In this document: one piece after another, positions 57,799 to 63,980 of the stretch
Layout of the letters: each line of letters opens with the position of its first letter
How positions within the stretch are numbered: the first letter of the stretch is position 1
The notes under the pieces: generated by a model
What the model saw: only the letters and a program-made list of their open reading frames with translations
The model's database searches: none
Told to the model about the DNA's origin: nothing
Origin: an uncultured Poribacteria bacterium
GTDB taxonomy: Bacteria > Poribacteria > WGA-4E > WGA-3G
DNA length: 64,000 nt
NCBI GenBank assembly: GCA_951813565.1
Contig: OX638351.1
Coordinates: 384,001-448,000 of the forward strand
Direction: 5' to 3'
Made by a program: the position numbers and the translations under genes

Positions 57799-57873
57799 AG
57801 TTCCTTTATTATTTTCGCAATTAGTAGTTTTGGACTTGGATTTTTTCAGTTTTTTCAAGCGTTCCATTTTACG

Positions 57874-59151
57874 TCAGTGAACCAACATGCTTTCCTTGAT
57901 AAACTTTGAGAAGATGTCTATATTTCTATAGTTATACTTGTAGCAGGCTTCAGCAACGTAAAGCGGACTATAACAGTAGCATTTAATCTGTATATTTCTT
58001 GATATTTACAGATACAATTGTTTTCTTCTGCGTGTCTCTGACTTTACTGTATACCATCGCGATGCGTTAGTCGGTGTCCGTTCAATGTTCACCGAGGTAG
58101 GTAAAGCGTATGACGAAACAAAAAAAGGAACGCAGTAAGCAAATGATAAGCGGAAAGCATAAAAAACTTATCTGGTAGCGTGTCGTCGCAGCGCAAAATA
58201 AACCAAGCAGACGATTGCATAGAAATATAATGAGCGTGTATAAGTTGAACTTATGCACTTTGTGAGATCACACCTGAGTGTCGTCCAGACACTTTGCAAA
58301 ACGTATATAGAAGTGAAATACTTAGTATTGCACGGAAATATACAGTTTAAAAGGATCGGTGTGTATCCTGTTTCATAATGGTGATGTGAACCGAACCACG
58401 CACGTTTCAATAAAGACCAAAATCCTTCAATGGTATTTGTATGGGTATCCCCATCAGCAAACTGTTCATTGTGATTGATAACTGTGTGTTTCATTTCTTT
58501 GCCGATAAGTTTGTAAGCTTGATATTCGTCTGTTATCAGTTCAGATTCCTTTAGGTTTGCGACACTGCGAATAAACTTGAGTATACTGCGTCCTGTCAGT
58601 TGTTGTGCGACTTGTGCGACAACCTTACCGCCTCTTTGGACTGCACCGATAATCGCAGTTTTCTCTGTGCCACGACCGCGTTTACTCGGTTCGTCATCCT
58701 CACGCTTGTTCGGTTTGCGGGGTTTACCGCCAATGTAGGTCTCATCTGCTTCTATGATACCTTCAAGCAGTGCGCCCCCTTTCTTTGCCATCTCCGCGCG
58801 AATACGAGCCATTATGAACCATGCTGTCTTTTGGTTCAAATCTAAGTCGCGCGCTAGTTGACAGCTGGACAAACTCTTTTTCGCATTCGCAATCAGCGAG
58901 ATCGCCAAAAACCATTTCTGTAATGCGACTTTTGTGCCGTGAAATACCGTCTCGCAAGTGACCTTGAAAGTGGCGTGGCAATCGTGGCAATTCCAGCGTC
59001 CGATGCGTCCTTCCTTCGTTTCTGTTCGCTTACCCACATGACTGCTTTCACAGTGGGGACATTCCGGTTTACCTTTCCAGCGGATCTTCTCTAAATGTGC
59101 GATACAACTCTCTTGATCTGGGAATCGTTCCATAACCTTGATTAGGTCCAT
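57874..59151 (-). pseudogene. IS1595 transposase interrupted by a 390-bp insert; 294 aa once the insert is removed
   Basis: CPHC/CHDC zinc ribbon, EADETYIGG, ITDEY, TNTIEGFW; the missing C terminus PLYVAEACYKYNYR...LVH* is at 57874-57966. Confidence 0.92.
57967..58356. mobile_element. 390-bp non-autonomous insert with subterminal IRs, flanked by CGG direct repeats
   Basis: CGG at 57964-57966 and 58357-58359; TTTAATCTGTATATTTC (57982-57998) vs GAAATATACAGTTTAAA (58335-58351). Confidence 0.85.
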
Positions 59152-59542
59152 CAGAATACTCCTCTGAATAGGAGTTGCTTTTTCTGACGGATATCTGATA
59201 CAATATCAGATAAGGTTGAACCGTCAAAAAGCAACTCGCTTTTTTAGGTTTAATTAGGGGGTGACAACCCCTAACTTCTTATCTATATTATACCATATAA
59301 ACCCAGTATACACAAGGGTTTATTAGACTTTTTCCAAAAAATTATCAAGTCCAAAACTACTAATTGCGTAAAAATAATACCATATTGCATATATATCGGC
59401 AAGAAATTTTATTATTCAATAGGAATGGTAGTTTTCTGTTGATGATCGATTGAATAGGATGTAATGTGATACCATTTTTTTCTTGTGGATTCAGGTGAAA
59501 TATGCTACACTTAACCCAAAGTTAAAGCAAGAGGTAAATCTA

Positions 59543-62642: not shown

Positions 62643-63980
62643 CTGATTTACCCCCAGTTTTTGTAGAAACAAATGTGCATAAGGTTTTTCAGATACTTTG
62701 TGTGAGGAGGTCAATGCTGGACTGCTACGGACTTTATCCCGCACAATCGGTTATAGTAATACGAGTCAAGGAAAATGTCAGGTTCCCAGGTTGTCTCCAG
62801 TATTCTTTTTATAGCAAAAATGAGTGAATATGTTTTTGTGTATTATAGGTTTTTATCCACCGCTCCCCAGATTTTTCAAAATGGAGGAAACAGATACCAT
62901 AACTCACATAAACGATAAACCATAATAATACGATCCGTGGTAGTTCTTGCTGCTTCAATCGTAAATGCCGGAACCCGAATAGTGTCTTTATATCTCGGAA
63001 ACATTCTTCTATCTGCCTCCGCTTTTTATAGGTCCGTTTTTATAGGTCCGATAGAGTTGTGCGTTCTGTCCACTATTTGAAATGAGATAAAGCGGTTCTT
63101 TATGGCGAACATCTCTAAAAACATAAAGGTTCAGTTTGAGTTCCTTTGTGCTGTGATAAGATATGTTAGGATAGACATCTGTATTTTTCAGTGTCTCAAG
63201 TTTGATGCGTTGTCCTTTGTGGTAAAAACAAGCATTTGGACAAACGCATCCGACAAACTCAATACCAGTTTCCATCAGAGGTTTCATCAGATACCTTGCG
63301 CGCGCACATCCTCTGTCAAACACGAGGATCGGTCTTTGGACATTCGGTAGGCGGTTTCAAACTGCTTGATGAACTGGCAACAAAACTCTTGAACAAGCAC
63401 ATTATGGCTCGGGTAGACCATCTTGTCAAAAGCGTCTTTTTTGTAGATTTTCCAATAGATCGGAATAGCGCGTTTGCGAAATGGCACAGCAATAACAATA
63501 ATCCTGTAGTCTCGGAGAATATCATTCTCATCTACAAGCAGGGTGCGGGGCACACGCCCTGTTTTGTCATATAACCACGATAAGACAAAGACACACCACG
63601 CCTCCATAGCAATAGATGTAGGAAAGTTTGAGTTGATAAACCGGAGCAGTCGTTTTTGTTTCGTTTTATAATGGGCAACGCAAACGGGTAAGTGTGCCGA
63701 AATCGTCCTTATTTGAAATGTTTTCGTGTGAAGACACGCCAATATGACCAAAATAAGATTTCTGAGAGCAGGACGTTTCAACACTTTTTTGAACCCTTGT
63801 TTTACTTGTGGGATGAGCACGCGTGGATAGACTTTGTCCGATGCAATCTGTTTCAGTGGAATACCTCTAAAATATACGCTATAAAATAAAATTTGAAAGC
63901 AGTTTAGCATACAAAACACTTTTGCACAACTATTATGAGAATACAAACAAATATGGCCCCTCAAAAACTGGGGAAATCAG
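62643..63980 (-). mobile_element. IS4-family element (IS10-like ends) with frameshifted transposase pseudogene
   Basis: IRs CTGATTTACCCCCAGTTTTT / AAAAACTGGGGAAATCAG; LLVDE, VFDRG and YKKRRQIEECFRDIK (YREK) fall in separate ORF pieces. Confidence 0.85.

Follow-up and report, generated by a model that had tools for sequence, protein, structure and literature searches.

A probable protein-free IS607 miniature of Poribacteria pairs a TnpB omega-RNA scaffold with a second, covarying RNA module

Elements of the IS607 family (H. pylori IS607, IS1535, ISC1926, ISXfa1; PMC6188088, PMC10711439) are described as having GG ends, no target duplication and imperfect inverted repeats at unequal distances from their ends (PMC6188088; 10.1101/2023.11.20.567912). 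They encode a serine recombinase, TnpA, together with TnpB, and the omega-RNA (reRNA) at their right end contains a pseudoknot between a loop and the end, as described for ISXfa1 (PMC10711439). TnpB normally trims this RNA from its own mRNA, and processed omega-RNAs measure 79 to 466 nt (PMC10278001). Protein-free forms are also known: standalone omega-RNAs act in trans, and PATE-like minimal elements have been reported (PMC10691335; 10.1101/2023.03.14.532601), those described there being of the IS200/IS605 type with hairpin ends and a Y1 transposase, with no mention of a second conserved RNA module in the portions consulted. SMN1 of Sulfolobus has been tied to ISC1733 (PMC3718332). Group B (IS607) IStrons (10.1101/2023.11.20.567912; PMC13565253) insert after GG, terminate in CGG, carry a structured RNA on the 5' side of their omega-RNA and have frequently lost tnpA or tnpB. 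The element described here has in common with the IS607 family the GG core, the lack of duplication, the repeat layout and a right-end omega-RNA with its pseudoknot, and through its parents also TnpA and TnpB, while differing in having no protein genes, a length of about 390 bp and an extra structured module that the parent lacks. Similar to the PATE-like elements it is protein-free, with an omega-RNA predicted to serve TnpB in trans, and similar to the group B IStrons it has IS607 ends, sits after GG, ends in CGG and carries a 5' RNA, although this RNA is far smaller and contains no recognisable group I intron. The transposon part is ordinary, a protein-free IS607 omega-RNA miniature being a known kind of element; what is new is the extra module (module A), a compact covarying fold that matches no Rfam family and holds a fixed position before the guide RNA.

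The element lies in a stretch of 64,000 nucleotides (the window), where it sits antisense in an IS1595-family transposase gene (57874-59151, minus strand) belonging to a host element with terminal repeats near 57807-57846 and 59336-59379. We confirmed the claim of the preliminary description that removal of the insert restores this gene: with 393 bp taken out, an intact 294-codon transposase frame resulted, which matched the Pfam families DDE_Tnp_IS1595 and Zn_ribbon_IS1595. The empty allele was also found as real DNA, as the joint 57963 to 58357 was present in three of four runs, namely the DNA runs X3 and X7 and the RNA run X19, the joint in the latter being indistinguishable from an empty DNA allele. 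Both junctions in the window carry GG, and comparison with the empty allele revealed no target duplication. The mobile unit is 57967-58357 (391 bp) plus one GG, the left GG core (57965-57966, plus strand) lying on the target side as the 3' end of the TAM. A 3-bp CGG core had been proposed earlier, and this had to be corrected to GG, because this particular target and the last base of the element share the C by chance. The distinct left junctions of relatives that were caught by our pattern read RRGG in 17 of 17 cases (the pattern missed the GCGG of the window itself and two copies in the related genome G009, whose left junctions are AAGG and AGGG), and in a second insertion of the window's element, seen in run X3 at the loose end 57965, A and not C precedes the GG.

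Terminal inverted repeats are absent, as described before, and the 17-bp subterminal repeat was recovered at 57982-57998 and 58335-58351 (16 of 17 positions matching), 15 and about 6 bases inside the ends. The left end (57967-58018, plus strand) holds the first arm and a second inverted copy at 58001-58018, and is probably the region bound by TnpA; the right end (58335-58359, plus strand) comprises the other arm and the terminal GG core at 58358-58359. Short, helically phased direct repeats are a further mark of IS607 ends; in this element, related motifs were seen to recur in both orientations. The sequence also contains the previously reported 22-codon ORF, three internal hairpins and both short internal matches. 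The host IS1595 element (57807-59379) is the sole copy of its subtype in the genome, about 15 other IS1595 copies being only about 72% identical. Elsewhere in the window (63009-63964, minus strand), two overlapping ORFs resemble a frameshifted transposase by eye.

BLAST and nhmmer searches of the window's own genome (G000) identified three autonomous 1775-bp elements that share both ends with the insert. Their TnpA matched NF033518, an IS607 serine recombinase, with 178 bits against a cut-off of 110, and their TnpB scored above the cut-off of NF040570 and below those of the narrower IS607 and IS200 TnpB models; no other TnpA or TnpB of this type was found in G000. The TnpB of these elements (L174-L176) is Fanzor2-like, its best solved relative being 9b0l (E 7e-26). 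It was also observed that this TnpB has an E-A-Y-T-S-K-T motif without the usual zinc-finger cysteines after it, and that the tnpB frame is open across most of tnpA. The GG ends, the lack of duplication and the imperfect repeats at unequal distances, hallmarks of the family in PMC6188088, identify the element as IS607, and we consider it very probable that the insert is a protein-free, non-autonomous IS607 miniature that is mobilised by TnpA and carries a TnpB omega-RNA scaffold and a separate module A. The earlier proposal of a recombinase-less mobile unit with subterminal inverted repeats that recombines at a short core proved correct as to the kind of element, but not as to its family or mechanism. 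The right end is identical to that of the parent at 32 of its last 40 bases; the left end of the window copy is one base shorter, only 27 of 40 bases are identical, and its TAM is GCGG rather than RRGG. No parent with exactly the ends of the window copy was found.

G000 contains three near-identical 445-bp sister copies, and 10 of the 41 relatives searched hold matches to the element, all within the same genus; G003 and G020 are among them and contain miniatures of 445 bp and of 278 bp. A phylum-wide search matched 28 of 176 genomes and pointed to a second genus, in which 36 of 65 genomes carry a related IS607 lineage as full-size elements or miniatures. The window's element is itself mobile, as it occurs with several different flanks and alongside an empty allele. 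It was assembled from run X3 as one contig without variant letters, yet with at least two left flanks, and its multi-copy status is taken from these differing flanks and not from the contig depth (251, compared to 20-35 in the flanks), which is no measure of copy number. A circle junction was not found in four contig sets, in which rare forms are dropped, and BLAST searches of plasmids and phages returned nothing or three chance-level pieces. Run X7 contained a 5'-truncated copy (L043:2058-2544) that starts at 58097 and is joined there to a broken gene resembling, by eye, a Cre-type tyrosine recombinase; the truncation may stem from a deletion or from an internal GG that served as a false left end. 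A separate element family with CAGGACTTACGCA ends, present 29 times per orientation in G000 with common spans of about 150, 550 and 1090 bp, was found inserted at window positions 58222-58226 in a run X7 copy, in the linker that joins module A to the omega-RNA, and it also cuts short an IS607 left end at about G000:416,240 (L177).

The omega-RNA scaffold (58232-58359, plus strand) aligns with the parent's right end and the final codons of its tnpB. It consists of hairpins at 58236-58258 and 58276-58294, a long hairpin at 58298-58348 and a small "nexus" hairpin (58262-58273); the GATC in the nexus loop (58266-58269) forms pairs with a second GATC at 58354-58357. The scaffold is folded and under selection: its stems are retained through two-sided changes, and the loop and the end change together, with GATC/GATC in the window and G009, GATGA/TCATC in the parent, GATAG/CTATC in the sister, and GTTC/GAAC and GTTA/TAAC in the second lineage. 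The exception is one G003 copy (L012), which has a mismatch-type combination. By analogy with the system in PMC10711439, the predicted guide is the outside flank, i.e. IS1595 sequence at 58360-58379 (plus strand); within the genome it matches its own site alone, and the empty allele would be matched as well. The element contains no effector or transposase gene and has kept the omega-RNA, with the effector encoded elsewhere in G000. The earlier suggestion that a guide RNA was retained is correct in so far as there is an omega-RNA at the right end, with its guide outside the element and serving a nuclease; it is not an internal bridge RNA. Following the known IS607 cycle, TnpA of the autonomous copies would excise the miniature as a circle and insert it at RRGG sites, while their TnpB would load the miniature's omega-RNA with the outside flank as guide and cut the empty site, after which repair would restore the miniature copy. 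The window copy may be silent, as it lies antisense in a gene and a promoter scan found no plus-strand site for it. The RNA runs X18 and X19 yielded short right-end contigs with three to four differences, and X19 also one 281-nt contig of a sister form (depth 2.8) over 58020-58220; we did not take these contigs as proof of expression because DNA carry-over is possible.

Upstream of the scaffold, a 5' structured domain (58063-58134, plus strand) is formed by a closing stem (58063-58068/58129-58134) and a hairpin (58071-58076/58090-58095). It is common to the G003 and G020 miniatures, another version being present in the 445-bp miniatures of G000 and in those of G009, and the hairpin shows compensatory changes relative to the G003 form, three of its pairs being altered on either side, as read by eye rather than counted by a tool. 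Module A follows between this region and the omega-RNA, in the window in its short form (58145-58218, plus strand), as a double pseudoknot. It comprises the hairpins P1 (58145-58150/58167-58172) and P3 (58178-58194) and a 3' tail that pairs twice, through PK1 (58207-58212) with the P3 loop and through PK2 (58216-58218) with 58157-58159 in the P1 loop. In general, P1 is followed by a middle domain that may be missing, then by P3 with its four pairs, an A-rich linker and the tail with its two pairings, and many miniatures of the second genus have a longer form of the same fold. When R1, a model built from 13 long forms with the window excluded, was run over the 64 kb of the window, the top hit fell at 58139-58237 (19 bits, E 0.00086).

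Module A is a conserved RNA fold under selection. Among 20 aligned copies, 95.1% of the cells were paired, 24 of 42 pairs showed two-sided change and none of 500 shuffles scored as high, a control that overstates the case since the sequences are kin; the alignment itself had been built on the stems outside the knots. The PK2 triplets, which are absent from the R1 model, pair in all 19 testable rows (one row of the 20 has no P1) and occur in six types, GCA/TGC in the window; only 2 of 720 permutations of these types pair fully. PK1 is conserved, with two-sided change in none of its four pairs, and both loops contain strongly conserved unpaired bases. The G009 miniatures carry a diverged module A with a five-pair loop/tail match (by eye), which R1 missed. 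In Rfam 15, neither the element nor its relatives matched near any gathering score, and by eye the P1 loop lacks the P3 hairpin of HDV-like ribozymes. The folding z-score of the whole element was only -1.95. The 22-codon ORF (58110-58178, plus strand), which overlaps P1, was rejected as a gene, as sister elements do not retain its first half and its changes fit base pairing.

When 185,579 genomes were scanned for module A with a single exact pattern, 22 loci were obtained, every one of them in Poribacteria, diverged forms elsewhere being possible, and all 22 directly precede an omega tail. A search with R1, whose strict whole-genome filters missed four copies in G000, found 28 places in 16 of 112 Poribacteria genomes; all 28 lie directly before an omega-RNA, and their surroundings contain neither tnpA nor tnpB except for a 25-codon remnant at eight of the places. 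A structural descriptor drawn from these copies found only the four miniatures in G000, and no loci were obtained when viral contigs were scanned with patterns for module A and for the module B described below. Between module A and the omega scaffold there is only a short A-rich linker. Module A occurs on three different IS607 right-end types, suggesting that it has been swapped between lineages. In 20 loci of autonomous elements nothing resembled module A better than E 0.042; this value belongs to a 17-nt likeness of P3 to a tnpB coding stretch in one of the 20 (L058), which we treated as chance.

Other structures occupy the same slot. Sister miniatures contain module B, which is unrelated to A and consists of a tRNA-like arm, two hairpins and a pseudoknot. 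It was found in the gene-less IS607 miniatures L080, L086, L100-L102, L112-L115 and L118-L123, mostly of genus g13. Its arm has an acceptor/T stack and a D-like hairpin and lacks an anticodon arm, its hairpin loops are of the AAAACCA type, its pseudoknot covaries, and 16 of 35 predicted pairs showed two-sided change in 13 aligned copies. These arm features are common to mascRNA/menRNA-type tRNA-like signals, with a weak match to the Rfam family mascRNA (RF01684; 25.7 bits, E 0.088). Module B differs from mascRNA in falling below the gathering score of 42.5, in being bacterial and in lying inside a transposon; it is absent from the window's element. In L098, a third and unrelated pseudoknot-like module was seen once, by eye, directly 5' of the omega-RNA match. 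In the 278-bp miniatures the slot is empty. No description of these modules or of Poribacteria IS607 elements was found in the literature at the level of titles and abstract openings; supplements may list them.

Our leading, though still tentative, reading is that module A acts as a leader for the guide RNA, defining or protecting its 5' end, since in these miniatures the guide RNA is no longer cut from tnpB mRNA. Such a leader might work as a nuclease-blocking knot or as a cleavage signal, and the tRNA-like module B would do the same job through RNase P or RNase Z; that a tRNA mimic occupies this slot in other miniatures speaks for a role in processing. Against a need for module A, the 278-bp miniatures have spread without it, and the module is therefore dispensable for mobility and for retention of the omega-RNA.

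An alternative explanation is that module A is an extended part of the omega-RNA, bound by TnpB or helping its folding, which has replaced the parent's 5' tnpB-coding sequence. The constant position directly 5' of the scaffold, separated by only the short A-rich linker, is what would be expected in this case, and lengths of up to 466 nt for processed omega-RNAs (PMC10278001), as well as the 247-nt RNA of the closest solved relative, 9b0l (PMC11832414), leave room for it. However, the parents that supply the same TnpB lack module A, the slot is filled by the unrelated modules A, B and C or by none, and the pairings of module A are all internal. We consider an extended omega-RNA rather unlikely, and less likely than a leader.

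The genomic sites of the elements bear on a further possibility. Right junctions lie just before start codons at 20 of 33, 31 of 34 and 8 of 10 testable sites for the three end types, compared to 17-19% of random GG sites, in counts that include full-size elements and some orthologous sites. Full-size elements show the same bias, which is explained by a purine-rich, Shine-Dalgarno-like target; TAMs of the type AGGAG/GAGGG have been reported (PMC11061315). One right-end type itself ends in the Shine-Dalgarno-like AAAGGA. With their location just before start codons, the miniatures would mostly lie inside host transcripts, in line with the leader reading above. Several of them (L069, L092, L104-L106, L111 and L115) sit in translation-gene operons, directly ahead of genes whose translations resemble tsf, rpmE, rplR, rpsO and fusA. 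A passenger RNA, for example a ribozyme, a riboswitch-like sensor, a protein decoy or an antitoxin-like RNA that rides on the vehicle or tunes the downstream host gene, would fit the many copies before start codons, the conserved unpaired loop bases and the occurrence on three right-end types. We nevertheless regard it as unlikely, since module A was not found away from the omega tail in either search (22 of 22 and 28 of 28) and the start-codon bias is shared by full-size elements and accounted for by their target.

The same sites raise the question of splicing, as an element inserted in sense orientation between a ribosome-binding site and a start codon would benefit from being removed from the host mRNA by a self-splicing intron, and the insertion after GG and the CGG terminus are those of group B IStrons (PMC13565253). 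An intron is improbable here: there was no Rfam group I or group II match at E<=10 in the element or in its relatives, module A measures about 75 nt and shows no group I core motifs when compared with the consensus by eye, the modules are interchangeable or absent, and the window copy lies antisense in its host gene. Even less probable is that the interior is neutral filler from captured DNA; the 278-bp miniatures do manage without a module, one run X7 copy has a mobile element right behind it and another copy is truncated at 58097, but two-sided stem changes and a long-range triplet kept across two genera need selection on the RNA fold.

The original reading of the preliminary description, by which the insert would be a non-autonomous member of IS110/IS1111 and carry a bridge RNA inside, has next to no chance of being correct: subterminal repeats, a short core, no duplication and eight internal bases that match the left flank had spoken for it, but both ends belong to an IS607 parent with a serine recombinase and TnpB, PF01548 (the DEDD/IS110 recombinase) had no match in G000 (95% complete, one contig; control positive in 6 of 14), the core is GG, and the internal 8-mer is at chance level, 13.8% of 5000 random genomic GG sites matching the interior over an equal length. 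Judged by the criteria given there, this reading is refuted, in that the search for copies and an autonomous parent led to an IS607 element with TnpB and not to IS110, and the stretch homologous to the internal segment is unchanged in the G003 and G020 copies and in the X3 copies with different flanks, whereas in IS110/IS1111 elements internal guide loops change with the target.

Returning to module A as a leader, a broader and more speculative picture would be that IS607 miniatures have repeatedly recruited folded leaders that cut or shield the guide RNA for release from host mRNAs, with module A, possibly a new class of self-cleaving ribozyme or nuclease-blocking RNA, and the tRNA mimic module B being swapped between lineages. 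If true, these recruited leaders would be a natural counterpart of the engineered ribozyme-guide and tRNA-guide cassettes. The modules could yield a new ribozyme or an RNA-stabilising element for guide expression, and they give an in vitro handle on how standalone omega-RNAs mature without a tnpB mRNA.
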